Shown in pieces: positions 3,630 through 52,689 of a stretch of DNA of 64,000 nt. The translations under genes and the position numbers were made by a program. The DNA comes from Candidatus Saccharimonadota bacterium (GTDB lineage Bacteria; Patescibacteriota; Saccharimonadia; Saccharimonadales; JACDBH01): contig JACDBH010000004.1 of assembly GCA_013694995.1 (NCBI GenBank), forward strand, positions 256,995 through 320,994, read 5' to 3'. The notes below the pieces were generated by a model that did not search any database, was not told the origin of the DNA, and worked only from the letters and a program-made list of their open reading frames with translations. Positions within the stretch are counted from its first letter, which is position 1, and each line of letters begins with the position of its first letter.

Positions 3630-4973
3630 ATGGCAAAAAAGGGAAGTGTGCGCTATGTTTGCAACAGCTGCGGTGCAGTCCATTCCTCATGGATGGGGCG
3701 TTGCAGTACGTGTGGCGAATGGAACACCATAACTGAGGAACTCGATACAGCGGCTCTTAGTGCGCCCAAAGGACGGAAATTACAGACTTCTTCTGTCAGC
3801 TTAGTAGCTAAGAATGAGCAGCAAAAACGTCTTGATGCCGGCGAGCCTACGGTCAATGATGTATTAGGCGGTGGATTTGTGCCCGGCAGCGTGATACTTA
3901 TTGCCGGCCAACCGGGCATCGGTAAAAGCACGTTAATGCTGCAAATAGCCTATGCCGCTGCCAAAGCTGTCAGCGTTCTTTATATCAGCGGCGAAGAATC
4001 GGTGCACCAGGTAGGATTGCGGGCGAAACGGCTGGGAGTTAGCCAGGAGCAGCTTCAGATTGCGTCCAGCACTTCAGCAGACGATATCGCGGCAACTATA
4101 GCAAGCGGTGATCATGCATTAGTCGTCGTCGACTCCATCCAGACAGTTTCTGTGGAGGCTATTGTTTCTGCCGCCGGAACTGTCAGCCAGATTACCAATA
4201 GCACATATATGATGATGCAGGCCGCCAAGCGCTCAAACACCGCTTTGCTGTTAGTCGGGCATGTGACTAAAGAAGGTTCTATCGCTGGACCTAAAGTACT
4301 TGAGCATGTAGTTGATGTCGTATTGCAGCTGGAAGGTGACAGATATGGCGGGTTCAAAGTATTAAGAAGCGTCAAGAACCGGTTTGGTAACACAAATGAA
4401 TCGGCAATCTTTGAAATGAAGGAGGACGGTCTCCAACCGGTCGAAAATCCTTCTGCGGCATTGTTGGCCGAGAGGCAAGTTAGCGACGGTTCTGTCGTTC
4501 TAGCAACGTTAGAAGGCGCCAGGCCGCTCCTAGTTGAAGTCCAGGCGTTAGTAAATACTACAAGCTATGGATATCCCAAACGCGCTGCCAGCGGTATAGA
4601 TTTGAACCGGGTAAATTTATTGATAGCCATGCTGGAAAAACGTACTAAGCTGAATCTGGCTGACAAAGATATTTATATTAATATTGTCGGTGGACTCAAG
4701 ATTACTGAACCGGCGGCTGACCTGGCTATATGCATGGCAATAGCCAGTGCCAGCAAGGGTATGCAGCTTAAAGAAGATGCTGTTGTCTTTGGCGAAGTTG
4801 GCCTAAGCGGCGAAGTCCGGCGGGTACCGTATGCTGAGAAACGTATAGCCGAGGCAAAAAAACTTGGATTTTCCGTTGCGATTGCCCCTAAAAACAGTAC
4901 AACCAAGAAAAATACATTCGTCCGCGAAGTTATCGATATTCGAAGCGCACTTAATTCTTTTTTGAGCAAATGA
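3630..4973 (+). CDS. radA: DNA repair protein RadA/Sms
   Basis: N-terminal C4 zinc finger (CNSCGAVHSSWMGRCSTCGEW), Walker A GQPGIGKST, KNRFG motif, Lon-like C-terminal domain. Confidence 0.93.
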   Translation: MAKKGSVRYVCNSCGAVHSSWMGRCSTCGEWNTITEELDTAALSAPKGRKLQTSSVSLVAKNEQQKRLDAGEPTVNDVLGGGFVPGSVILIAGQPGIGKSTLMLQIAYAAAKAVSVLYISGEESVHQVGLRAKRLGVSQEQLQIASSTSADDIAATIASGDHALVVVDSIQTVSVEAIVSAAGTVSQITNSTYMMMQAAKRSNTALLLVGHVTKEGSIAGPKVLEHVVDVVLQLEGDRYGGFKVLRSVKNRFGNTNESAIFEMKEDGLQPVENPSAALLAERQVSDGSVVLATLEGARPLLVEVQALVNTTSYGYPKRAASGIDLNRVNLLIAMLEKRTKLNLADKDIYINIVGGLKITEPAADLAICMAIASASKGMQLKEDAVVFGEVGLSGEVRRVPYAEKRIAEAKKLGFSVAIAPKNSTTKKNTFVREVIDIRSALNSFLSK

Positions 4974-40860: not shown

Positions 40861-41333
40861 TGAAAGCGCATGAACTGATTGTCGCATCTCATCGTCGCAA
40901 AAACCGAGTTGGTCGTGGTATTTCAGCCGGCCAAGGTAAAACTGCCGGTCGCGGTACTAAGGGCCAAGGTTCGCGGGCCGGTTCTAGCCGTAAACCCGGT
41001 TTTGAAGGTGGCCAAAATCCACTGATGCAGCGTTTACCAAAACTCCGCGGCTTCCGCTCACAACACGCTAAAGCAGAGGTCATTTATACTGGTCAACTCG
41101 AAACCATTAAGGGCATAGTCGATAACTTTAGTCTGTTTAATGCAGGCTTAGTTTCAAGTCCCTACACAAAGGTAAAAATAGTTGTTCGTGGCGCTATTAC
41201 TAAAAAATTTATAGTAAAACTCCAAGCTGCCAGTAAGCCGGCGGTAGTAGCAATTAAAAAAGCTGGCGGTAGTTTCGATATAACCTCGCAACTTAAACGC
41301 GTAGCTAAAAAACCTGCGGAAAATAAAACCTAA
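40860..41333 (+). CDS. rplO: 50S ribosomal protein L15 (uL15); follows rpsE directly, with no L30 gene
   Basis: GRGISAGQGKTAGRGTKGQGSRAG. The start overlaps the rpsE stop. Confidence 0.94.
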   Translation: MKAHELIVASHRRKNRVGRGISAGQGKTAGRGTKGQGSRAGSSRKPGFEGGQNPLMQRLPKLRGFRSQHAKAEVIYTGQLETIKGIVDNFSLFNAGLVSSPYTKVKIVVRGAITKKFIVKLQAASKPAVVAIKKAGGSFDITSQLKRVAKKPAENKT

Positions 41334-41419
41334 CTGACTTTGATATTTAGCTACTTAGTTTAGACATTTCAGCTATTTTCCGCTTTAATGTAGAGGAATT
41401 GTATTAGGGGCAGAAATTA

Positions 41420-42972: not shown

Positions 42973-43194
42973 ATGGTCAAAAACAAGGAAGTCATTGAGT
43001 TATCTGGGACGATTTTGGAAACCCTTCCAGGCACCCAGTTTCGTGTCGAACTTGAGAATGGCCATCAAATTATCGCCCACGTTGCCGGCAAGATGCGCAA
43101 GCATTTTATCCGGATTGTACCTGGGGACAGCGTTACGGTAGAGTTAACACCTTACGACCTTACTAAGGGCCGTATCACCTACCGCAAATCGTGA
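42973..43194 (+). CDS. infA: translation initiation factor IF-1
   Basis: [49 protein letters not shown] at 42973; the tracked TTG at 42964 is also possible. Confidence 0.93.
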
Positions 43195-43447
43195 TCTGCG
43201 TACTTTGCACATTTCATACAGAAACCTTGTGTTAAATTTTTAAATAGTATTGTTATACAATTTAAAAATTGTACTCGGCCTCTGCCTGTCCTGTTCTTCA
43301 GTACGAAATCACGAAAGATTAGCGAAACTTCACAAGACGGCACATAGAATGGTGAATAACCAGAAGATGTGGCTTTTTGCGAAGCGTCCGCGTTCAAACA
43401 ATCAATAATAAGCAGTGAGTCAATCTCATGAAAGGAGACTGATCCGC

Positions 43448-43564
43448 ATGAAAGTGCGTGCAAGCGTGAAGAAAATCAGCCCCGACGACAAAATTGTCCG
43501 CCGGAAGGGCCGATTATACGTTATCAACAAATTTAAGCCTAAGCATAAGCAGAGGCAAGGGTAA
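43448..43564 (+). CDS. rpmJ: 50S ribosomal protein L36 (bL36), Cys-less (C-) form; below the ORF-track cutoff
   Basis: My translation: [46 protein letters not shown] Shine-Dalgarno upstream. Confidence 0.9.
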
Positions 43565-43566
43565 CT

Positions 43567-43953
43567 ATGGCAAGAATCGCAGGAGTTACAATTCCCGCCG
43601 AGAAGCAAATAGGAGTCGCCCTTACTTATGTCTACGGAATAGGACCAAAGTTTGCTGGCGATATATTAACATCAGCCAAGGTCGACTCTACTGTCCGTGT
43701 TAAAAACTTGACAGATGATGAAGTCACCCGCATTAGCGATATCATAAGTGCTAATTTTACAGTCGAAGGTGAACTACAACGTATCGTAAGTGCCAACATT
43801 AAGAGGTTGAAAGATATTAAGGCCTACCGAGGCATCCGGCATAGTTCCAACCTGCCTTCCCGGGGCCAACGTACACGTACCAACGCCCGTACCCGTCGGG
43901 GCAAAAAAGTAACTGTCGGTGGCACGGCTAAGAAAGCGGCGTCAAAGACTTAG
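43567..43953 (+). CDS. rpsM: 30S ribosomal protein S13 (uS13)
   Basis: MARIAGVTIPAEKQIGVALTYVYGIG... Confidence 0.95.
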   Translation: MARIAGVTIPAEKQIGVALTYVYGIGPKFAGDILTSAKVDSTVRVKNLTDDEVTRISDIISANFTVEGELQRIVSANIKRLKDIKAYRGIRHSSNLPSRGQRTRTNARTRRGKKVTVGGTAKKAASKT

Positions 43954-43954
43954 T

Positions 43955-44392
43955 ATGGCAGAAGAACAAACTACACCTACGCCGGCAGAAATAACCGAAG
44001 TTCCAGCAGCTCCTGTTGTTAAAAAGAAGAAAGTAAAGCGCAGCGTGCCTTATGGCCAAGTCCATATTATGGCAACTTTCAATAATACGATTGTTACTGT
44101 AACAGATACAAAAGGTGGGGCACTTACTTATTCTAGCTCTGGTGCCTGCGGTTTCCGCGGTTCTAAAAAAGGTACAGCTTATGCAGCCCAGATAGCAGCC
44201 GAGAAAGCACTTGCTGAAGCGAAACAAAACTATGGCCTTAATAAAGCAGATGTATATGTTCGCGGCATTGGTATGGGACGCGATGCAGCAATCCGTGCAA
44301 TGCAAGTTTCTAATATCGCCCTCGAAGCTGTCCATGACGTAACTGGCATTCCGCACGGCGGCGTTCGTCCCAAGAAAGCACGGAGAGTATAG
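43955..44392 (+). CDS. rpsK: 30S ribosomal protein S11 (uS11)
   Basis: GQVHIMATFNNTIVTVTD...GFRGSKKGT. ATG at 43955 after the rpsM stop. Confidence 0.94.
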   Translation: MAEEQTTPTPAEITEVPAAPVVKKKKVKRSVPYGQVHIMATFNNTIVTVTDTKGGALTYSSSGACGFRGSKKGTAYAAQIAAEKALAEAKQNYGLNKADVYVRGIGMGRDAAIRAMQVSNIALEAVHDVTGIPHGGVRPKKARRV

Positions 44393-44395
44393 ACT

Positions 44396-45007
44396 ATGAG
44401 TAAAATATCGATCGTCAAACAATCGCGCCGTGAAGGTTATGCATTGCATCCAAAAGCACACAAGGCTCTTGTTAAACGCTCAACACTTCCTGGCAAGCAA
44501 CCTGGTTTTTCTAGTCGCAACAAACCGAGTCAATACTCCTTGCAGTTAAGAGAAAAACAGAAAGTTAAGCGTCTGTACGGCCTATTGGAACGCCAATTCG
44601 CCAAACTTATGACGGAAGCATCGCGCACAAAAGGTCAGTCCGGTCTGGTTTTGCTTCGTTTCTTGGAACTGCGTCTTGATAACGCCGTTTATCGTGCCGG
44701 TTTCGCGCCGTCGCGCCCAGCCGCTCGTCAGTTAGTTAGCCATGGACACTTTATGGTCAACGACCGGCGAGTTGATATTCCATCTATCCGTGTTCAAAGT
44801 GGCGATGTTATCGCCCTTCGCCCGCATAGTGCAGCCAATAGTTATTTTCAAAGGCTTGATGAAGTCAGCCCAGCCGGTGAAGTTATTTATAGTTGGATGA
44901 AAGTTAACCGTAAGAACCGCGCTCTTACTATTACAGGAGAACCGACGCGCGAAGAAGCAGAACCAGGCATCAATGAGCAATTAATCGTAGAATACTACTC
45001 ACGCTAG
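44396..45007 (+). CDS. rpsD: 30S ribosomal protein S4 (uS4)
   Basis: S4 RNA-binding domain (RLDNAVYRAGFAPSRPAARQLVSHGHFMVN). Confidence 0.94.
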   Translation: MSKISIVKQSRREGYALHPKAHKALVKRSTLPGKQPGFSSRNKPSQYSLQLREKQKVKRLYGLLERQFAKLMTEASRTKGQSGLVLLRFLELRLDNAVYRAGFAPSRPAARQLVSHGHFMVNDRRVDIPSIRVQSGDVIALRPHSAANSYFQRLDEVSPAGEVIYSWMKVNRKNRALTITGEPTREEAEPGINEQLIVEYYSR

Positions 45008-45025
45008 GAGGCGATAGGTAAACTT

Positions 45026-45964
45026 ATGACAAAGCAAATTCACACACCAACATTAAGCACTGTTGATGACCACAACAGCACAAGCAGCACTTTTGTGATT
45101 GAGCCACTACATACCGGTTATGGTATGACACTAGGCAACTCAATCCGCCGCGTCTTATTGTCTAGTATTTCAGGGGCGGCAATTACTTCATTTAAAATTG
45201 AAGGTGTAACTCACGAGTTCACGACAGTTCCCGGCGTCAAAGAAGATGTCGTTGATATCATGTTGAATTTAAAAGGTATTCGTTTCCGAGTGTACTCTTC
45301 AGAGGCTCAGACTCTCCGTATTGTGAAAAAGGGCAAAGGCAATATTACTGCTAAAGATATAGAAATTAATGCTGACGTTGAAATCGTCAACCCAACACAT
45401 ATTATTGCGACTGTTGATGATGAAAAAGCCCCGTTTATTATGGACCTGGTTATCGAAACCGGCCGTGGTTACCGCACAATTGATGAAAGCGCTAACACAA
45501 AACCTAGCGACATGATTGCATTAGATGCCATCTTCAGTCCGGTTCTACGTGTTCGTTATAAAGTAGAAAATACTCGTGTCGGTCAAATGACAGACTTAGA
45601 TAAGTTAATAATTAACGTCGAAACCGATGGCTCCATTACTCCTCGCGACGCCTTTGAGGAAGCCAACGCAATACTTGTCAATCAGTACACAGCTCTTGCT
45701 GGCCAAACTCGTGTTGAAGCCCCAGCCCCGTTAATCGATACCGGGGTTAAAGATATTGATCCTAGCGACGAAGCACCAGCACTGATGACACCGATTGAAG
45801 ATTTAAATCTGAGTGCCCGAACCACTAACGCCCTTATTAACAACGAAATCCATACCCTAAAAGACCTTTTCTCCTTAAGCGACGCAGAACTACGTGACCT
45901 AAAAGGATTCGGCAGCAAAGCTTTGGACGAAGTCAAAGAAAAAATGGCGGAATTGGAGCTTTAA
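45026..45964 (+). CDS. rpoA: DNA-directed RNA polymerase subunit alpha
   Basis: N-terminal domain (GYGMTLGNSIRRVLLSSI) and C-terminal domain helix-hairpin-helix (LNLSARTTNALINNEIHTLKDL). Confidence 0.95.
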   Translation: MTKQIHTPTLSTVDDHNSTSSTFVIEPLHTGYGMTLGNSIRRVLLSSISGAAITSFKIEGVTHEFTTVPGVKEDVVDIMLNLKGIRFRVYSSEAQTLRIVKKGKGNITAKDIEINADVEIVNPTHIIATVDDEKAPFIMDLVIETGRGYRTIDESANTKPSDMIALDAIFSPVLRVRYKVENTRVGQMTDLDKLIINVETDGSITPRDAFEEANAILVNQYTALAGQTRVEAPAPLIDTGVKDIDPSDEAPALMTPIEDLNLSARTTNALINNEIHTLKDLFSLSDAELRDLKGFGSKALDEVKEKMAELEL

Positions 45965-46036
45965 AGATGTTTCGTAATAATGCACATCAGCAACTAGCAA
46001 TCAGGAATCAAGAATTAGCCTTAAAGGGAACTAAGC

Positions 46037-46064
46037 TACTTTCTACTTTCTACTTTCTATTTCC
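46037..46064. repeat. short tandem heptamer (TACTTTC x3 plus a degenerate copy) in the rpoA-rplQ spacer
   Basis: Read directly: tactttc tactttc tactttc tatttcc. Confidence 0.7.
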
Positions 46065-46091
46065 TGTAATTTACCAAAGGGAGATTGCATA

Positions 46092-46559
46092 ATGCATCGC
46101 CATGGATACAAAGGCCGCAAATTTGGCCGTGAAAGGGACCAACGTGAAGCACTTCTTAAGGGCCTTGCGACTTCCTTAGTAATACACGAGAGTATTGAAA
46201 CTACGCTTCCTAAGGCTAAGGAACTTGTGCCTTTTTTGGAAAAATTGATCACCAAAGCTAAGAAGGGTGACCTACATAACCGTCGCCAAATTGTCAGCAG
46301 CCTTGATACATTGACCAGTGCCCATAAGCTAGTGGATGAAATAGCACCAAAGCTTAATACTCGTGTCAGTGGACACCTACGTATCGAACGTACGGTTATT
46401 CGACGTGGTGATCACGCACAGTTAGCACGCGTAAGTTTTGTTGATGATCTTAAAGCAGCACCTGTTGCAAAAAAAGCTGCAGTAAAACCTGCCGCGGCTG
46501 TCCCAAAAAAGCCATCCCGTAAACCTACAGTTAAAAAAGCTGTAAAGGAGACAAAATAA
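46092..46559 (+). CDS. rplQ: 50S ribosomal protein L17 (bL17) with Ala/Lys/Pro-rich C-terminal tail
   Basis: MHRHGYKGRKFGRERDQREALLKGLATSL. Tail AAPVAKKAAVKPAAAVPKKPSRKPTVKKAVKETK. Confidence 0.93.
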   Translation: MHRHGYKGRKFGRERDQREALLKGLATSLVIHESIETTLPKAKELVPFLEKLITKAKKGDLHNRRQIVSSLDTLTSAHKLVDEIAPKLNTRVSGHLRIERTVIRRGDHAQLARVSFVDDLKAAPVAKKAAVKPAAAVPKKPSRKPTVKKAVKETK

Positions 46560-46999
46560 TGAAGACTTATTCTGCCAAGCCTGCGGATGTAACTCGTAAA
46601 TGGTACGTTATTGACGCGTCTGAAGCACCTTTGGGTCGTATTGCTACTCGGGTAGCAACTCTTCTTACAGGCAAGGAAAAGCCTATGTTTACAAAACACA
46701 TCGATACCGGCGACTTTGTGATTGTTATTAATACTGCCAAAACTATCGTAACCGGTAAAAAACCTACAGATAAGATTTATTACCGCCACAGCAATTACCC
46801 CGGTGGCTTGACTGAACTAAGTTTTAATGAGGTAATGGCGAAAGATCCTACCAAAGCTATTTTTCAGGCAGTACGTGGCATGTTGCCAGTCAATAAACTC
46901 CGCGATGAGCGCCTGAAAAGATTGAAAATTTACGCCGGCAGCGAACACAACCATAATGCCCAACAACCAGAAACTTTAATCTTGAAAGGCAAGAAATAA
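46559..46999 (+). CDS. rplM: 50S ribosomal protein L13 (uL13)
   Basis: RKWYVIDASEAPLGRIATRVATLLTGK. Confidence 0.95.
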   Translation: MKTYSAKPADVTRKWYVIDASEAPLGRIATRVATLLTGKEKPMFTKHIDTGDFVIVINTAKTIVTGKKPTDKIYYRHSNYPGGLTELSFNEVMAKDPTKAIFQAVRGMLPVNKLRDERLKRLKIYAGSEHNHNAQQPETLILKGKK

Positions 47000-47394
47000 T
47001 GGCTAAGGACACATATTTTTACGCACTTGGACGTCGCAAAAGAGCTACAGCCCGCGTACGCCTGCAAAGCGGCAAAGGTAATATAGTTATCAACGGCAAG
47101 CCAGCGGTCGAATTTCTATGTGGTAGTGAGTATCTAGCCGCTGAACTTAAAAAGCCATTTACAGTTATTGAAAAAGATACTTTTGATATATCGGCTATAG
47201 TATCAGGGGGTGGTTTTGCAGGCCAAGTTGATGCTGTCCGCTTAGGTATTGCTAAAGCATTAGCTGCGATGAACGAAGATTTGAAGGGCACTCTAAAACG
47301 TGCGGAACTATTAAGTCGTGACCCTCGTGAAAAAGAACGTAAAAAGTTTGGGTTTAAGAAGGCTCGTAAGCAGAGACAATTCACTAAGAGGTAA
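46999..47394 (+). CDS. rpsI: 30S ribosomal protein S9 (uS9)
   Basis: GGGFAGQVDAVRLGIAKAL...RDPREKERKKFG..KARKQRQFTKR. Confidence 0.95.
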   Translation: MAKDTYFYALGRRKRATARVRLQSGKGNIVINGKPAVEFLCGSEYLAAELKKPFTVIEKDTFDISAIVSGGGFAGQVDAVRLGIAKALAAMNEDLKGTLKRAELLSRDPREKERKKFGFKKARKQRQFTKR

Positions 47395-47476
47395 CTGTTA
47401 GGAATCATTCCCCACATCACTCCTTTGGTGGGACCCTCTAAGATGCTTTTCACAATAGGAATTTTCTACTATACTT

Positions 47477-47749
47477 ATGCCTAATATGGTTAAGCTTTTA
47501 TATATTAGGGAAGAAGATTACTGGTTAGTGCCGATAAGTTTTTTCGCTATTATGGGCATTACAATGGGATTATATGCAGGAGTAGTACAACTGAGGCTAA
47601 TGTCTTTCTTAGCTGGTTTTATTGGGCTATGGTTTACGACTTACATAATTAGACGGGGTTACGGCAAACGCACGTCCTATATACACCTATTAATTTGTTT
47701 ATCGCTGAGTATAATCTTATCCATTACAGTAATTCTGTTGACAAACTAG
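47477..47749 (+). CDS. hypothetical small membrane protein (~3 hydrophobic helices)
   Basis: 90-aa ORF. An alternative ATG at 47486 lies 10 nt after a TATACT box (47470-47475). Confidence 0.5.
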   Translation: MPNMVKLLYIREEDYWLVPISFFAIMGITMGLYAGVVQLRLMSFLAGFIGLWFTTYIIRRGYGKRTSYIHLLICLSLSIILSITVILLTN

Positions 47750-47774
47750 CTCTTGCAGGCGTAAGGTGACTGAT

Positions 47775-47849
47775 ATGAACAAACTATTCCATCTTTATTA
47801 TACCTGGTTTACACCCCCTCAACTGGCGGTTTGTTCTGTGCGTTTGTAA
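47775..47849 (+). CDS. candidate 24-aa leader peptide (MNKLFHLYYTWFTPPQLAVCSVRL)
   Basis: AAGGTGA Shine-Dalgarno 5 nt upstream. Aromatic-rich and contains a Trp codon (47805-47807). Overlaps the first copy of the GGCGGTTT element. Confidence 0.3.
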   Translation: MNKLFHLYYTWFTPPQLAVCSVRL

Positions 47850-47870
47850 GAAAATACGAAGACATTGACT

Positions 47871-47897
47871 AAACCGCCACCTAAGGCGGTTTTTTTA
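47871..47897 (+). terminator. intrinsic terminator (possibly the attenuator of the ORF47921-trpS unit and/or the end of the rplM-rpsI unit)
   Basis: AAACCGCC-acctaa-GGCGGTTT followed by TTTTT. Confidence 0.65.
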
Positions 47898-47920
47898 AAT
47901 CTAAACAAAGGAATAAACCA

Positions 47921-48169
47921 ATGAGTGCAGAATTAAGTGAAGAAGTATTGCAAAGATTAATAGTTATGAATCGAGATGCCGGAATGGATCCTGGACCAAT
48001 CGTGCCCGCATACATCGTCGAAAGCATAAAAGTAAATCAGGACCGAAATGATCTAAAGGGTATGCACCCTGCGTTGGCTTTTCACCTCGCTTATGTAGCT
48101 ATTTGCGGAGGGACGACTGAAGAGCAAGCAGTAGTCACAGAAATGAACAATGATTATCTTGCAGAATAG
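47921..48169 (+). CDS. hypothetical protein (82 aa) immediately upstream of trpS
   Basis: ORF with an AAGGAA Shine-Dalgarno. No recognised family. Confidence 0.5.
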   Translation: MSAELSEEVLQRLIVMNRDAGMDPGPIVPAYIVESIKVNQDRNDLKGMHPALAFHLAYVAICGGTTEEQAVVTEMNNDYLAE

Positions 48170-48181
48170 AGCTGAAAAAGG

Positions 48182-48187
48182 GATACT
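48182..48187 (+). promoter_or_regulatory. candidate -10-like box GATACT, 8 nt upstream of the trpS ATG
   Basis: aAAGGGATACTtagtactaATG. Confidence 0.25.
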
Positions 48188-48195
48188 TAGTACTA

Positions 48196-49224
48196 ATGAG
48201 TAAAGAGGTTATTTTAACTGGCATTAGGGCTAATAATGACCTGACAATTGGTAATTATTTCGGCGCTATCATGCCTATTATTGATATGGCAGTACACCGG
48301 TCCAACGATTACCAGGTCAATCTGTTCGTGCCCGACATGCATAGTTTTACAACACCGATAGATCATTCTAAGTTGCAATCTCAAATTATGCACAATCTTC
48401 GCAAATTTACTGCCGCTGGTTTGCCCCTAGACATCACGGATGTACATATCTACCGACAGAGCCATATTTCAGCGCACAGTGAACTAACCTGGATTTTAGA
48501 TTGTTTTACGGGCGTTGGAGAGATGAACCGCATGACACAATTTAAAGATAAAGCTTCGAAGCTAAGTGATGATAGGGTTAGCGTCGGGCTTTTTAATTAT
48601 CCAGTACTTATGGCTTCAGATATTTTATTGTACGGCGCAAGTTATGTGCCAGTAGGTGAAGACCAGACACAACACCTTGAATTTACGCGCGATATTGCAG
48701 AACGCATGAATATACGTTTTGGCGAATTATTCACTGTGCCTAAGCCTGTAAAAGAACAGCATGAATTTTTTGGTAATGACCAAGGGCTAAGAATAAAAGA
48801 CCTTATGGATCCAAATAAAAAAATGAGTAAGAGTGACGATTCTGATAAAGGTGTGATTTTCTTGGGTGATTCGCCGGACGAGGCAGCTAAGAAAGTCATG
48901 GGCGCAACAACTGATTCGTTAGGTAGCATACGTTATGATTGGAACAACCAACCGGGAATAACTAATTTACTGCAGATACTCGCTCTTTTAACGCACCGTT
49001 CACAGGCAGAAGTAAATAATGAATGGGAAGGCAAGGAACGCTACGGTGACCTTAAGAGTGCCGTTGCTGAGGCCACCACGAGATTCTTAAATGACCTCCA
49101 AGCAAAACTGGCTCAAGTTGACGATAACGCTATTCTTGCTAAACTGGAGTCTTCTCAAGCAGCCATGCGGGATATTGCTGGTCAAACACTTCTTAAAGTT
49201 CAAAAAGCCGTCGGCTTAAGATAA
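48196..49224 (+). CDS. trpS: tryptophan--tRNA ligase
   Basis: Class I aaRS. N-terminal TGIRANNDLTIGNYFGA (HIGH-type region) and KMSKS (NKKMSKSD). 342 aa. Confidence 0.92.
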   Translation: MSKEVILTGIRANNDLTIGNYFGAIMPIIDMAVHRSNDYQVNLFVPDMHSFTTPIDHSKLQSQIMHNLRKFTAAGLPLDITDVHIYRQSHISAHSELTWILDCFTGVGEMNRMTQFKDKASKLSDDRVSVGLFNYPVLMASDILLYGASYVPVGEDQTQHLEFTRDIAERMNIRFGELFTVPKPVKEQHEFFGNDQGLRIKDLMDPNKKMSKSDDSDKGVIFLGDSPDEAAKKVMGATTDSLGSIRYDWNNQPGITNLLQILALLTHRSQAEVNNEWEGKERYGDLKSAVAEATTRFLNDLQAKLAQVDDNAILAKLESSQAAMRDIAGQTLLKVQKAVGLR

Positions 49225-49225
49225 T

Positions 49226-50083
49226 ATGTACCTAATTCAAATAACAGAAGATTTCGTAGGAAGGCGAACTGATAAGCTTTTGGCTGAACAATTGCCGCAG
49301 TTTCCACGTGCCGCTTTACAGAAATTATTTGAAAAAGACTTAATACTGTTAAATAACAAGATAACTAAGCCCGGTATAAAAGTTCGGCTTGGGGACAGAC
49401 TTAAAGCAGACTTGTCACCACTCGATATAAAAATAGACGACATTGAATTACCGATTATTTACGAGGATGAAGATACTCTTGTAATCAATAAACCCTCAGG
49501 AGTTATTTCGCACGCCCGTGGCCGATATTTTGACGAGCCCTCAGTCGCATCCTTTATAAGGCAAAATACTCATCAAAGCGGAGAAAGGGCAGGGATTGCA
49601 CATAGGCTAGACAGGGCAACTAGCGGCGTTATGATCTGCGCCAAGAACCAAAGCTCTTTGAGCTGGTTGCAAAAACAGTTTTCCTTACGCAAAGTCAAAA
49701 AAACCTATATTGCGATAATATTAGGTGAGATGCCTAGCGAAGATGGAATTATTGATATGCCCATCGGCCGGAACCCTAAAAAACCCCAGACCTTCCATGT
49801 GACTGAGTTAGGTAAAACCGCTGTAACGAGATATAAGGTGATTCAGAAAACTGATCTTTATAGTATGCTGGAACTTCAACCCGAGACGGGACGCACCCAT
49901 CAGTTACGCGTCCATTTACAGGCCCTAAAGCATCCAATTGTAGGTGATTCCTTATATGGAGGCAAGGAATCCCTGCGGCTTTTATTGCACGCTAAGGACT
50001 TAGAAATAATCTTGCCCAATAATAAGCAGGTGACATTTACGGCCCCCATTACTAGCGAGTTTATAGAGCTTTTGAATGTTTGA
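49226..50083 (+). CDS. RluA-family 23S rRNA pseudouridine synthase (RluD-like)
   Basis: N-terminal S4-like domain and catalytic HRLDRATSGVMICAK motif. Confidence 0.88.
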   Translation: MYLIQITEDFVGRRTDKLLAEQLPQFPRAALQKLFEKDLILLNNKITKPGIKVRLGDRLKADLSPLDIKIDDIELPIIYEDEDTLVINKPSGVISHARGRYFDEPSVASFIRQNTHQSGERAGIAHRLDRATSGVMICAKNQSSLSWLQKQFSLRKVKKTYIAIILGEMPSEDGIIDMPIGRNPKKPQTFHVTELGKTAVTRYKVIQKTDLYSMLELQPETGRTHQLRVHLQALKHPIVGDSLYGGKESLRLLLHAKDLEIILPNNKQVTFTAPITSEFIELLNV

Positions 50084-50945
50084 CGAACTATTGCTGCATC
50101 AAAAAACAGCTGACGGGTGTAGAGAATACTTAAAACATCCATCTCAGGGACTAATGTTAGTCGGTCCACTGGGGAGCGGTAAGCAACAGCTGGCTCTTTC
50201 TTTGGGTTCTAAACTGCTTAATATACCGGTAAACAAACTTGGTGCGCACCCTTACTTTTTACATATAAACCCCGAAGGCGAGACTATAAGTATTGAAGAA
50301 GTTAGATCAATTCAGCAATTTTTAAAGCTAAAAACACTTTCAGCAAATGAAAACATCAAACGAATAATACTAGTTAGTGATGCGGGTAGAATGAGGGTAG
50401 AGGCTCAGAATGCTTTACTCAAGACCTTGGAAGAACCGCCAATAGATACGGTAATAATTATGACTGTCCATCATATAGAAGCGTTGTTGCCCACAATAAT
50501 ATCTAGAGTCACTTCAATGAGTGTTTTACCTATAAGTGAAGAAAGCGCATTTCAGTTTTTTAAGACCCAGTTTTCGGAAGCAGCTATAAAACGTGCTTTC
50601 GTTATTTCTCAGGGCCAAGCCGGCCTGCTGTTTGCACTACTACAGGAAACTGACCATCCGCTTATAGACTTTGTCAAAAAGGCAAAGGATATTTTAAGTA
50701 AAACACCAGGCCAAAGATTATTGATAACAGAAGAATTTAGTAAAGACCGTTCAAGCGTTCAGTTAATGCTAAACGCGCTACTTCGTATAACTCATGCCGC
50801 TTTAGCTAAAACGAGCAAAAATAACGACAGAAATCAAATTAAAAAGTGGCATTCTAAATATGAGGTGATTTTACGGACAACTGAATATGCACAAACAAAC
50901 GCCAACACTAAATTGTTGCTAGACGAACTTTTTTTGAATATATAA
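50076..50945 (+). CDS. holB: DNA polymerase III subunit delta' (clamp-loader AAA+ subunit)
   Basis: P-loop-like GPLGSGKQ, LLKTLEEPP motif. 289 aa. Confidence 0.75.
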   Translation: MFDELLLHQKTADGCREYLKHPSQGLMLVGPLGSGKQQLALSLGSKLLNIPVNKLGAHPYFLHINPEGETISIEEVRSIQQFLKLKTLSANENIKRIILVSDAGRMRVEAQNALLKTLEEPPIDTVIIMTVHHIEALLPTIISRVTSMSVLPISEESAFQFFKTQFSEAAIKRAFVISQGQAGLLFALLQETDHPLIDFVKKAKDILSKTPGQRLLITEEFSKDRSSVQLMLNALLRITHAALAKTSKNNDRNQIKKWHSKYEVILRTTEYAQTNANTKLLLDELFLNI

Positions 50946-51014
50946 TGAAACCATTTATTTATTTCTTAACTATTTTGGCCCCTAGAACAGATAATGGATT
51001 TGAAATGGGTTCAG

Positions 51015-51023
51015 TGATATACT
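51015..51023 (+). promoter_or_regulatory. candidate extended -10 (TGaTATACT), 11 nt upstream of the ATG at 51035
   Basis: cagTGATATACTgattagtacctATG. Confidence 0.3.
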
Positions 51024-51034
51024 GATTAGTACCT

Positions 51035-51688
51035 ATGCTTTCTATAGCACTGTTAGCCGGTTTTGGTTTTCTCGCTTTCCGCAGTACTCGAGTACGTGAT
51101 ACGGAACTCTCTCAAGCATCACTACGTATTAGTGATCGATTAAGTAAATTGTGGGACATCGCTCATCAGGGTATGCGCGAAAACCGTTTTTTGCGAGCAG
51201 AGAAAGCGTTACTGACTATTCTTAAAATAGATCAAAAGAACGCCGCGGCCTATAACCGATTGGGTATTTTGTACGCTAAACAAAAAGAATATAAAGATGC
51301 TATTGATTGTTTCGAAATTGCCAGTTCAATTGATCCGAGTGCATCTAGCCTGCACAACTTAGGACTTATTTATTATGAAACTGAAAATTATCAAAAAGCT
51401 GCCCTAGCTTTTGAACAGGCCCTTAAACTAGAAGATGGACTTGCCGCCCGACATATAGCCTATGCTAAGGTGCAAGAAAAGCTGGGTAATGAAAAATTGA
51501 TGTTACACGAGCTTGAACGCTCCACAGAGCTTGAACCAAACCCGGAAACATTTGGTTTGCTAATACGTGCTTATGAAGCCAAAGGCTTGGCAGCAGAAGC
51601 CGATATTACGAAATTAAAACTTAATAAATTAATTATGCCCGCCGGTAAGCCCCGTCGCGTTTTACGTCCCCGCAAAGTTGTAATTTAA
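51035..51688 (+). CDS. TPR-repeat protein with N-terminal membrane anchor
   Basis: Hydrophobic N-terminus, then TPR-like repeats (AAAYNRLGILYAKQKEYKDAIDCFEIA..., LHNLGLIYYETENYQKAALAFEQALKL). Confidence 0.75.
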   Translation: MLSIALLAGFGFLAFRSTRVRDTELSQASLRISDRLSKLWDIAHQGMRENRFLRAEKALLTILKIDQKNAAAYNRLGILYAKQKEYKDAIDCFEIASSIDPSASSLHNLGLIYYETENYQKAALAFEQALKLEDGLAARHIAYAKVQEKLGNEKLMLHELERSTELEPNPETFGLLIRAYEAKGLAAEADITKLKLNKLIMPAGKPRRVLRPRKVVI

Positions 51689-51719
51689 TCTGATAAAAAT
51701 CTACCCGTTGTCAGAACTT

Positions 51720-51731
51720 TGGTGCAGGGTG
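51720..51731. repeat. 12-bp exact copy of the tRNA-Tyr 3' end (TGGTGCAGGGTG)
   Basis: Identical to 52837-52848 in the same orientation. Together the two copies bracket the VOC gene. Confidence 0.8.
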
Positions 51732-51783
51732 ATTTACGATGTTAAAACGCTACTCATTGGTCTAGTTTAGCCACAAAGTTTTC

Positions 51784-52689
51784 TTAAAAATCTGTAATCA
51801 CAATCTTTTTCATTTGCATCATATTCTTAATAGCATCAGGTTTTTGTAACAATTTACCTATATTTTTAGGGATAATTTGCCAACTTACGCCGTACTTGTC
51901 TTTACACCAGCCACATTGCTCAGATTCGGGAACGGTAGAAAGCTTAGACCACAGCTGATCAATTTCTGCTTGATCTTCACAGGCTACTGATAAAGAAATA
52001 GCCTCATTGAAGCTAAAGTCTTGATCTACGCCAGAGTCCATAGCTGCCATCCATTGCCCATCAAGTTGGAAGTCTGCAAACATCAGCGAATCTTTTTTAG
52101 CTGGCCCCGTGTCTTCAGTGTATTGAGCGAGTGTACCCACCTTAGAATTAGGGAATACATCGGTATAGAACTCAATTGCCTCACGGGCATGATTCACAAC
52201 TCCATTGCCGAACATAAGGGACGGGATGATACATGGACGTTCTTCTCCTTCTGGATCTGTGAGAATTAACTGCCAAGAAAAACCGAAGCGATCCTTTACC
52301 CAACCGTAATGTTTACTAAAGGGGTATTGATCAAGAGCCATAAGGACTTCGCCGCCTTCAATCAATTTGTTCCATACTTCGTTTAAATGTTCACGTGCCT
52401 GATTATCGTGCGCAGGATCAAAGTTAACCATGAATGAAATAGCAGAATTAGGTTTAAATTCTGACCCAGCATTAATTGCAGTGAAATCATGACCGGCTAA
52501 ATTAAAATCAACTGTTAATATTTTTCCCGCAAGCTCTACTTGAAAGTCAGCAAGGCCTTCTTCTTGGCTATCAGGGTAGTGGGAATCGCTTGTTATTTTG
52601 CTTCCTGGAAATACCGAAACATAAAACTCAACTGCTTCTTTGGCGTTGCCATCAAACCAAAAATTTGGAGTAATCTTCTGTGTAGCCAT
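51784..52689 (-). CDS. VOC/glyoxalase-superfamily protein with two tandem PhnB-like (3-demethylubiquinone methyltransferase-type) domains
   Basis: 301 aa with an internal duplication (FYVSVFPGSK.../FYTDVFPNSK...; KHYGWVKDRFGFSWQL / WCKDKYGVSWQI). Confidence 0.75.
   Translation of the reverse strand: MATQKITPNFWFDGNAKEAVEFYVSVFPGSKITSDSHYPDSQEEGLADFQVELAGKILTVDFNLAGHDFTAINAGSEFKPNSAISFMVNFDPAHDNQAREHLNEVWNKLIEGGEVLMALDQYPFSKHYGWVKDRFGFSWQLILTDPEGEERPCIIPSLMFGNGVVNHAREAIEFYTDVFPNSKVGTLAQYTEDTGPAKKDSLMFADFQLDGQWMAAMDSGVDQDFSFNEAISLSVACEDQAEIDQLWSKLSTVPESEQCGWCKDKYGVSWQIIPKNIGKLLQKPDAIKNMMQMKKIVITDF

Follow-up and report, generated by a model that had tools for sequence, protein, structure and literature searches.

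An element of approximately 125 nucleotides (nt) was identified upstream of trpS, the gene of tryptophanyl-transfer RNA (tRNA) synthetase, in a 64,000-nt stretch of DNA from a Candidatus Saccharimonadota bacterium (contig JACDBH010000004.1, positions 256,995 to 320,994 of the forward strand). This whole stretch is referred to below as the window, and its features are given by position from its first letter, on the forward strand. Judged from the sequence, the element is most probably a classical ribosome-mediated transcription attenuator that stands ahead of a small-gene/trpS operon and senses stalling of the ribosome at Tyr, Trp and Phe codons. Fourteen distinct copies were recognised across Saccharimonadales loci (designated L002, L003 and so on), together with one weaker tandem copy in L085. 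What was observed in them comprises the sequence elements, two alternative helices with their energies, conservation, covariation, a fixed geometry, and linkage to trpS and to genes of the aromatic pathway. All features named in a preliminary description of the stretch, namely a mini open reading frame (ORF) at 47775–47849, the purine run AAGGTGA, a TGG codon at 47805, two copies of the octamer GGCGGTTT, their partner AAACCGCC and a terminator, were found in place.

Mutually exclusive RNA structures

The octamer GGCGGTTT is located at 47825–47832 and at 47885–47892, with its complement at 47871–47878; five copies of it are present in the 64 kb against 2.4 expected, three of them within 68 nt. 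Two hairpins share the central segment, region 3 (UAAACCGCCA, 47870–47879). The intrinsic terminator (47871–47896, helix 3:4) consists of AAACCGCC, the loop ACCUAA and GGCGGUUU, followed by seven T in all. Its hairpin (47871–47892) with the T-run was the top terminator in a 9-kb scan (43000–52000), with an energy of −12.5 kcal/mol and z=−4.1. As in a classical attenuator, the leader ORF is thus separated by a Rho-independent terminator from the first structural gene, and the form ACCGCC-loop-GGCGGU followed by six or seven U was kept in 13 of the 14 copies. Seven perfect-stem terminators were listed in the window, and the one in the trpS leader was the only one with strong complementarity to upstream sequence (−15.9 vs −3.5 to −7.5 kcal/mol).

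The antiterminator hairpin (47824–47879) is formed by pairing of region 3 with region 2 (UGGCGGUUUG, 47824–47833). A mutually exclusive upstream pairing had been described before with 9 base pairs (bp); the exclusion stands, and the structure is stronger than claimed, with a 2:3 helix of 10 bp continued by three inner helices of 2, 3 and 6 bp and with the stop codon of the leader ORF (47847–47849) at its apex. The energy of the hairpin (47824–47880) was calculated as about −24.3 to −24.5 kcal/mol (z=−5.8; none of 200 shuffled sequences was as stable), so that the proposed comparison of the two helices comes out clearly in favour of the antiterminator over the terminator. The same order of stability was obtained in 12 of the 14 loci (for example −23.7 vs −13.0 kcal/mol in L083 and −23.5 vs −15.0 kcal/mol in L011). 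RNAalifold returned the terminator on the full alignment and the antiterminator once region 4 had been removed.

Compensatory changes, which the preliminary description had suggested looking for in relatives, are present in the 2:3 helix. Pairing was found in 80.5% of its cells (30–56% in slid controls), and five of its 11 pairs are changed on both sides. Its covariation score of 0.206, against 0.141 in shuffles, was reached by 2 of 500 shuffles, with a sample (n=14 elements) below the size for a formal R-scape-type covariation test. Compensated versions of the helix are GGGCGGUC/GACCGCCC in L010, GCGGUUGU/ACAACCGC in L003, GUGGU/ACCAC in L081 and GCGGUUUGUU/AACAAGCCGC in L011, the last within a helix of 15 bp. 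The inner extension, UUCUGUG with CAUUGA, is kept in the loci with long leaders. The mutually exclusive antiterminator of a classical attenuator is therefore backed by both conservation and covariation. Loss of the mini-ORF or of the upstream arm in relatives, which had been named beforehand as the sign that would speak against attenuation, was not seen among the 14 loci: the mini-ORF and its Trp codon are present in all of them, the core of the upstream copy reads GCGGT in 13 and GTGGT in one, and only one copy is without the terminator.

A third pairing involves region 1 (GAACAAAC, 47777–47784), which is complementary to GUUUGUUC at 47830–47837. The resulting 1:2 helix, an anti-antiterminator, is seen in the fold of the 5′ part, and its duplex energy stands out from shuffles (p=0.0045 for the window; Fisher p=2.6e-6 over the 14 loci). 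It is compensated in L083 (GAAAAAAC with GUUUUUUC). Region 1 is situated near the start codon in the copies with long leaders. In the short-leader copies a local hairpin is formed instead by ACCG, part of the Thr-Asp codons ACC GAC directly after UGG UUU, and the CGGU of region 2; the conservation of Thr-Asp in these copies is thus explained at the level of RNA.

Leader peptide and leader promoter

The leader ORF of the window (47775–47849; ATG at 47775, TAA at 47847–47849) comprises 24 codons and reads MNKLFHLYYTWFTPPQLAVCSVRL. An open frame of 19–28 codons was found in all 14 loci, with ATG as the start in 13 and GTG in one. The preliminary description had called the mini-ORF aromatic-rich with a Trp codon, which is correct; the codons predicted to be regulatory are not that of Trp alone, they form a Tyr/Phe-Trp-Phe cluster. 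In the window this cluster is TAT TAT ACC TGG TTT (Y Y T W F, 47796–47810, with TGG at 47805), and YYTWF, YYFWF, AYWF and HAFWF are examples among the loci. The invariant Trp codon is followed by Phe in 13 of the 14 loci (W-I in L003) and preceded by Tyr or Phe at position −1 in 11 and at −1 or −2 in 13. Trp is codon 10 or 11 in 13 copies, and codons 11 and 19 in L018. The UGG codon lies 27–30 nt from the AUG; length changes of 3 and 24 nt occur, and in every locus the frame between the two codons is nevertheless uninterrupted and in phase. Past Trp, the leader continues for 9 or 13 residues in most loci. As in classical attenuators, a short leader ORF therefore carries codons that match the amino acids of the regulated genes. 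A side observation concerns the leader peptide of L018 (3602–3688), in which SNYWFTDF is duplicated in tandem and in frame and the Tyr-Trp-Phe cluster is thereby doubled.

The geometry claimed for ribosome-mediated attenuation was confirmed. The distance from UGG to the core of region 2 is nearly invariant (21–22 nt in all 14 loci, 23 nt in the tandem copy of L085), and the stop codon follows 4–22 nt past this core, inside the antiterminator loop. This is the placement by which a stalled ribosome would free region 2 and a ribosome at the stop codon would block 2:3 pairing.

A natural test that separates constraint on the RNA from constraint on the peptide is provided by L015 (2773–2850) and L011 (2631–2708). 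There, one inserted nucleotide after the WFT codons and ahead of region 2 places region 2 in another frame, and the nucleotides are kept; region 2 is therefore conserved at the RNA level. The conserved C-terminal residues AVCSVR were considered as the mark of a functional peptide and rejected as such, since their codons constitute the 5′ half of the extended antiterminator and are read in a different frame in L015 and L011; the conservation of A-V-C-S-V-R past the aromatic cluster is explained by the pairing of these codons with the conserved CAUUGA. Among all parts of the leader, only the Tyr/Phe-Trp-Phe cluster is conserved purely as codons.

The leader is preceded by a sigma-70-like promoter. 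Its −35 box TTGACA (47738–47743) is contained in the end (last codons L-T-N-stop) of ORF90, the upstream gene of a small membrane protein; it is TTGACA in 11 of the 14 loci and TTGACT, TTAACA or TAGACA in the others, and it is kept even in loci that do not have ORF90. A TAnnnT box follows at 16–18 nt in all 14 loci and ends 6–10 nt before the leader start codon (exactly 7 nt in seven loci as tabulated, or in eight with the first ATG of L018 taken as the start of its leader). In the window this −10-like box is TAAGGT (47762–47767; 18-nt spacer, 7 nt before the ATG), and it overlaps the run AAGGTGA (47763–47769), located 5 nt upstream of the ATG, that had been described as a good Shine-Dalgarno sequence. 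The run is there; as a conserved Shine-Dalgarno it was rejected, because it is found in the window only, with no similar purine run kept in the other 13 copies, and because it coincides with the −10 box, which is most likely what it represents. Since the conserved −10 box ends so close to the start codon, the leader ORF is probably leaderless or nearly so. The same arrangement of a −10 box followed by ATG also precedes trpS in the relatives, from which leaderless messenger RNAs (mRNAs) appear to be usual in this clade of Saccharimonadales.

Proposed mechanism

From these features we infer where transcription starts, how the leader is translated, where the ribosome stalls and in which direction the system responds, as follows. 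Transcription from TTGACA-18-TAAGGT would begin at or a few bases from the AUG at 47775, and the 24-codon leader would be translated leaderless or nearly so. Before the ribosome arrives, the early 1:2 helix (47777–47784 with 47830–47837) can hold region 2. When aromatic aminoacyl-tRNAs are plentiful, the ribosome would pass region 2 and reach the stop codon at the apex of the antiterminator, where it would separate regions 2 and 3 while regions 3 and 4 are being made by the polymerase; helix 3:4 would then form and transcription would end at the T-run (47890–47896). When charged tRNA-Trp (probably also tRNA-Tyr or tRNA-Phe) is scarce, the ribosome would stall on the YYxWF codons at 47796–47810. 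With a ribosome footprint of approximately 12–13 nt 3′ of the A site, its leading edge would end about 5 nt before region 2, and in the short-leader copies the ACCG:CGGU hairpin would be melted by it. Region 2 would then be paired with region 3 in the more stable antiterminator, the terminator would be blocked, and the polymerase would enter the genes ORF82-trpS-rluD.

Several observations weigh against this mechanism. The −10 box of the window is weak (TAAGGT, three of six consensus positions). The leader contains a single Trp codon, and most known trp leaders carry two or three. The minimum-energy fold of the full leaderless transcript of the window is the antiterminator, and termination would therefore depend wholly on kinetics and on an actively translating ribosome. 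Covariation in the terminator is almost nil, its core being invariant with one compensating pair (L011), so that the terminator is supported by conservation and not by covariation. The terminator hairpin has been lost (−1.0 kcal/mol) in L081, which is the closest relative by ORF90. The 14 sequences are kin, for which reason the shuffle statistics overstate their independence. Finally, trpS of the relatives has a TATAAT-like box of its own and no well-spaced Shine-Dalgarno sequence, so that mainly the small ORF may be under the control of the attenuator. Concerning L081 (3290–3412), it was also observed that the mini-ORF and the compensated 2:3 pairing are kept there and that, in place of the terminator, the UGGUUUACA region is paired with the region of the stop codon in a helix of 13 bp.

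Alternative explanations

The same RNA switch could be operated by the nascent peptide if the sequence Y/F-W-F(-T-D) arrested the ribosome from within the exit tunnel, possibly triggered by free tryptophan or some other small molecule and not by slow decoding of the aromatic codons. TnaC contains K-W-F-N-I-D in 24 residues, and the W-F-x-x-D pattern of the leader is similar; the constant distance of [YF]-W-F from both start and stop (Trp at codon 10 or 11, the end 9 or 13 residues later in most copies) and the single Trp codon also fit. A TnaC-type peptide would be expected to show a conserved W...D...P and a conserved C-terminal part, and neither was found: no Pro is conserved at the end, the C-terminal half is variable, W-F is the only constant part, and the residues past the motif are read in another frame in L015 and L011. 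The T-D conservation is accounted for by ACCG:CGGU pairing with region 2, L003 has W-I instead of W-F, the peptide of the tandem element in L085 is a different one (FIWRYHLKCWRY), and induction of trpS by an excess of Trp would make little physiological sense. Sensing by the peptide is thus considered improbable. Somewhat less probable still, and indeed very unlikely, is a functional micro-protein co-expressed with ORF90, in which case the hairpin would be a plain terminator and the internal copy of its arm would have no regulatory role. Peptide similarity was detectable with tblastn and ORF90 adjoins in 8 of the 14 loci, but the other six keep the element without ORF90, the length varies from 19 to 28 residues with a change of frame in the C-terminal half, and conservation past W-F follows base pairing with the terminator arm, including compensatory changes. 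Moreover, the next gene starts 15–30 nt after the T-run (57 nt in L011), and no promoter-like sequence is evident in the spacer.

An untranslated switch that binds a ligand or a tRNA, with the conserved UGGUUUAC and GGCGGUU as its binding or structural parts and the frame as incidental, would be in keeping with 13 of the 14 loci having no Shine-Dalgarno sequence and with the strong nucleotide conservation around UGGUUUACC and GGCGGUU. Its probability is nevertheless put very low, as the start codon is conserved and locked 6–10 nt past the −10 box, the AUG–UGG frame is maintained through every length change, and the RNA upstream of region 2 measures only about 50 nt, with no conserved helix other than 1:2. 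The Rfam searches point the same way: in agreement with the preliminary description, no T-box (RF00230) or riboswitch was matched in 47300–48300 even at E≤10, where only sub-threshold, largely terminator-driven matches to Phe_leader (RF01859; 22.2 bits, E=0.48, gathering threshold 55) and Trp_leader (RF00513; 20.3 bits, E=0.25, gathering threshold 41) appeared on the element, and at gathering threshold 11 related loci returned tRNAs only. The preliminary description had itself allowed that the terminator might simply end the rplM-rpsI-ORF transcript, and the hairpin is indeed a competent intrinsic terminator downstream of ribosomal protein genes. If that were its only function, the upstream pairing would be a chance likeness, to which almost no probability is given. 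It leaves unexplained that the whole arrangement is kept in 14 loci, that the z-scores of the two hairpins are −5.8 and −4.1, and that this is the sole terminator of the window with upstream complementarity; rpsI of L002 has a separate terminator of its own before the module, and identities of 34–63% for ORF90 and 65–75% for TrpS exclude that the loci are assembly artefacts of one sequence. In addition to its role in the attenuator the hairpin may serve as the end of the rplM-rpsI transcript.

Genes behind and before the element

The first gene of the putatively regulated unit, ORF82 (47921–48169, 82 codons), is preceded by the Shine-Dalgarno sequence AAAGGAA (47907–47913). The distance from the T-run to the next start codon is only 15–30 nt in 13 of the 14 loci, with a Shine-Dalgarno sequence (AAGGAG-like in most) ahead of the start, which leaves no room for a promoter after the terminator; in L011 the distance is approximately 57 nt. 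No promoter-like sequence was evident in the spacer between T-run and gene in any of the 14 loci. The slot between attenuator and trpS is mostly occupied by small ORFs of 56–123 codons with Shine-Dalgarno sequences, which belong to several unrelated families. Besides ORF82 they are located at 3794–3982 in L003, 3769–3945 in L004, 829–1200 in L010, 3671–3979 in L012, 3757–4008 in L018, 3426–3632 in L081, 1197–1367 in L083, 1002–1313 and 1455–1706 in L085, and 1425–1616 in L086. Comparison of the small downstream ORFs by all-against-all BLAST gave only pairwise remnants (L003 with L004, L018 with L084), and searches of ORF82, ORF90 and nine other small downstream ORFs against Pfam and NCBIfam gave nothing at threshold. 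The small ORFs are poor in aromatic residues, with one Trp in 883 residues (baseline 0.92%), 2.0% Phe (3.5%) and 2.0% Tyr (3.1%).

Wherever a locus provides enough sequence, trpS itself (48196–49224; Pfam PF00579, E=2.7e-55) was found downstream of the element, also in the four loci that had been recovered via ORF90 and not via trpS (L081, L083, L085 and L086). The synthetase operon that had been proposed as the regulated unit is thus borne out as far as linkage is concerned; trpS may, in addition, keep a weak promoter of its own. In nearly all relatives (L002–L018, L081–L086) a TATAAT-like box ends 7–10 nt before the trpS ATG and no well-spaced Shine-Dalgarno sequence is present, which suggests that a leaderless trpS mRNA is made from a promoter of its own. 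The box is degenerate in L083 and in the window (48170–48198), where the candidate −10 box is GATACT (48182–48187, 8 nt before the ATG). trpS may therefore possess a basal leaderless promoter, to which the attenuator adds inducible read-through.

In both L002 and L086 the gene directly behind the element encodes prephenate dehydratase (PF00800), with a DAHP synthase gene (PF00793) next to it downstream in L002 (aromatic-pathway genes at 1812–3949 in L002 and 568–1422 in L086). These genes after the terminator provide a link to aromatic amino acids that is independent of trpS. The Saccharibacteria lineage is usually described as lacking amino-acid synthesis.

As a tentative and rather speculative extension, the element might be the gate of a module for aromatic-amino-acid starvation. 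A leaderless peptide acting as the sensor, in which Tyr/Phe, Trp and Phe are each represented by one codon, would switch on a variable slot, filled with fast-evolving, aromatic-poor small proteins or, in some genomes, with prephenate dehydratase and DAHP synthase, and the small proteins would be effectors of the response of the symbiont to the amino-acid supply of its host; alternatively, the W-F motif would act as a nascent-chain sensor.

On the upstream side, ORF90 (47486–47749, in the frame 47477–47749) likely starts at its second ATG (47486), 10 nt after a TATACT box. It represents a clade-restricted family of membrane proteins approximately 87 residues long, in which a REEDYW motif is conserved and the C-terminus is LTN. 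The gene precedes the element in 8 of the 14 loci and is absent in L010, L018 (rpsI directly upstream in both), L011, L012 and L015; it is probably outside the switch itself.

Comparison with known systems

The mechanism proposed here is that of the textbook cases trpL, pheL and pheM, and the advance lies in phylogenetic reach and in detail, not in principle. With E. coli trpL (RF00513) the element shares the four-region design (1:2, 2:3, 3:4), a Trp codon about 20 nt before region 2 and an intrinsic terminator before the first gene. It differs in its single Trp codon, in a leader that appears leaderless instead of being led by a Shine-Dalgarno sequence, in a stop codon placed in the antiterminator loop past region 2, in an antiterminator twice as stable as the terminator, and in the presumed control of a synthetase operon, not of trp biosynthesis. 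The E. coli leaders pheM-pheST and pheL-pheA (RF01859) offer a synthetase operon (pheST) and a prephenate dehydratase (pheA) attenuated by aromatic codons, and the present element likewise stands directly before prephenate dehydratase in L002 and L086; runs of Phe codons are found there, a mixed Y/F-W-F cluster here.

For Streptomyces, classical attenuators have been predicted ahead of leuS and of trpS (trpS2) by Seliverstov et al. 2005 (PMC1262725). They are alike in placing a leader-peptide attenuator before trpS, so that low charged tRNA-Trp leads to more tryptophanyl-tRNA synthetase, and in occurring in a genome of Gram-positive type. They belong to Actinobacteria and not to the Saccharibacteria within the candidate phyla radiation (CPR), no sequence similarity was detected, and in the present leader a single Trp codon has Tyr/Phe beside it, with a variable small ORF placed between leader and trpS. 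In Corynebacterium glutamicum, attenuator leader peptides have been described for trpE, leuA, ilvB and aroF (PMC4046766, PMC3890552). The aroF leader contains mixed aromatic Phe-Tyr-Phe codons (PMC4046766; PMC3890552), and for the ilvB leader peptide, synthesis in the absence of a ribosome-binding site is reported (Morbach 2000, as cited in PMC4046766). These leaders differ in phylum and sequence and control biosynthetic genes in a prototroph, whereas trpS is the constant cargo here. The Saccharibacteria that host the element are largely auxotrophic.

The trpS T-box of Firmicutes (RF00230) regulates the same gene, and there, too, the charging of tRNA-Trp decides between terminator and antiterminator. 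The present element is different in its length of approximately 125 nt, in having neither a Stem I nor a specifier loop, and in its conserved ORF, which is presumably translated. TnaC of the E. coli tna operon is a leader of 24 residues with W-F near residues 11–12; it requires D16 and P24, is arrested at its stop codon and acts by blocking Rho. The length of 24 residues and the conserved W-F motif are shared by the present leader, which differs in lacking a conserved terminal Pro, in having an intrinsic terminator and in a C-terminal half that is not conserved as peptide.

In full-text literature searches, no description of leader-peptide attenuation was found for Saccharibacteria or Patescibacteria. 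The genomes of Saccharibacteria and other CPR bacteria are tiny and contain few recognisable regulators, the cells depend on hosts for amino acids, and to our knowledge very little is known about their gene regulation. If the proposed mechanism is correct, transcription and translation are coupled in these cells, regulation makes use of leaderless translation, and the charging of aromatic tRNAs is monitored as a direct read-out of host supply. With 125 nt, 14 natural variants and compensatory changes built in, the element is compact and testable. As a cis-regulatory element it is real and conserved, apparently unannotated and, as no Rfam model detects it, a candidate RNA family for annotation.

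Setting, identification of copies and further elements

The window was assigned to Saccharimonadales (Saccharibacteria/TM7) by homology of TrpS, RpsI and RplM, the best genome matches showing 65–75% identity in TrpS. The ancestral gene order in Saccharimonadales is rplM-rpsI-trpS-rluD-holB, with trpS directly after rpsI in several relatives; in the window, the ORF90 membrane-protein gene, the mini-ORF with its hairpin and the 82-codon ORF lie between rpsI and trpS. Homology to TrpS, homology to ORF90 and a covariance model were the three ways in which loci were reached, and the copies in them were recognised by tblastn with the 24-residue peptide, by reading of the neighbouring sequence, by a simple motif scan and by the covariance-model search. 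The tblastn search gave unexpected matches in L002 and L003. A word-based protein search with ORF90 found a single homologue, and a metagenome scan with the ORF90 alignment gave only five loci; L082 is the same as L081. Three weak covariance-model matches were discarded: L003 351–414 after inspection as the plain rpsI terminator, L007 1–50 after inspection because it is cut by the contig end, and window 41252–41372 as a weak match with E=0.69 only.

The tandem copy in L085 (1318–1435) is a second, weaker attenuator-like element (23.9 bits), flanked by the two small ORFs that precede trpS. Its parts are a separate Shine-Dalgarno sequence, an ORF of 19 codons including two for Trp (MKTTIQQFIWRYHLKCWRY), a 2:3 pairing of 10 bp and a terminator.

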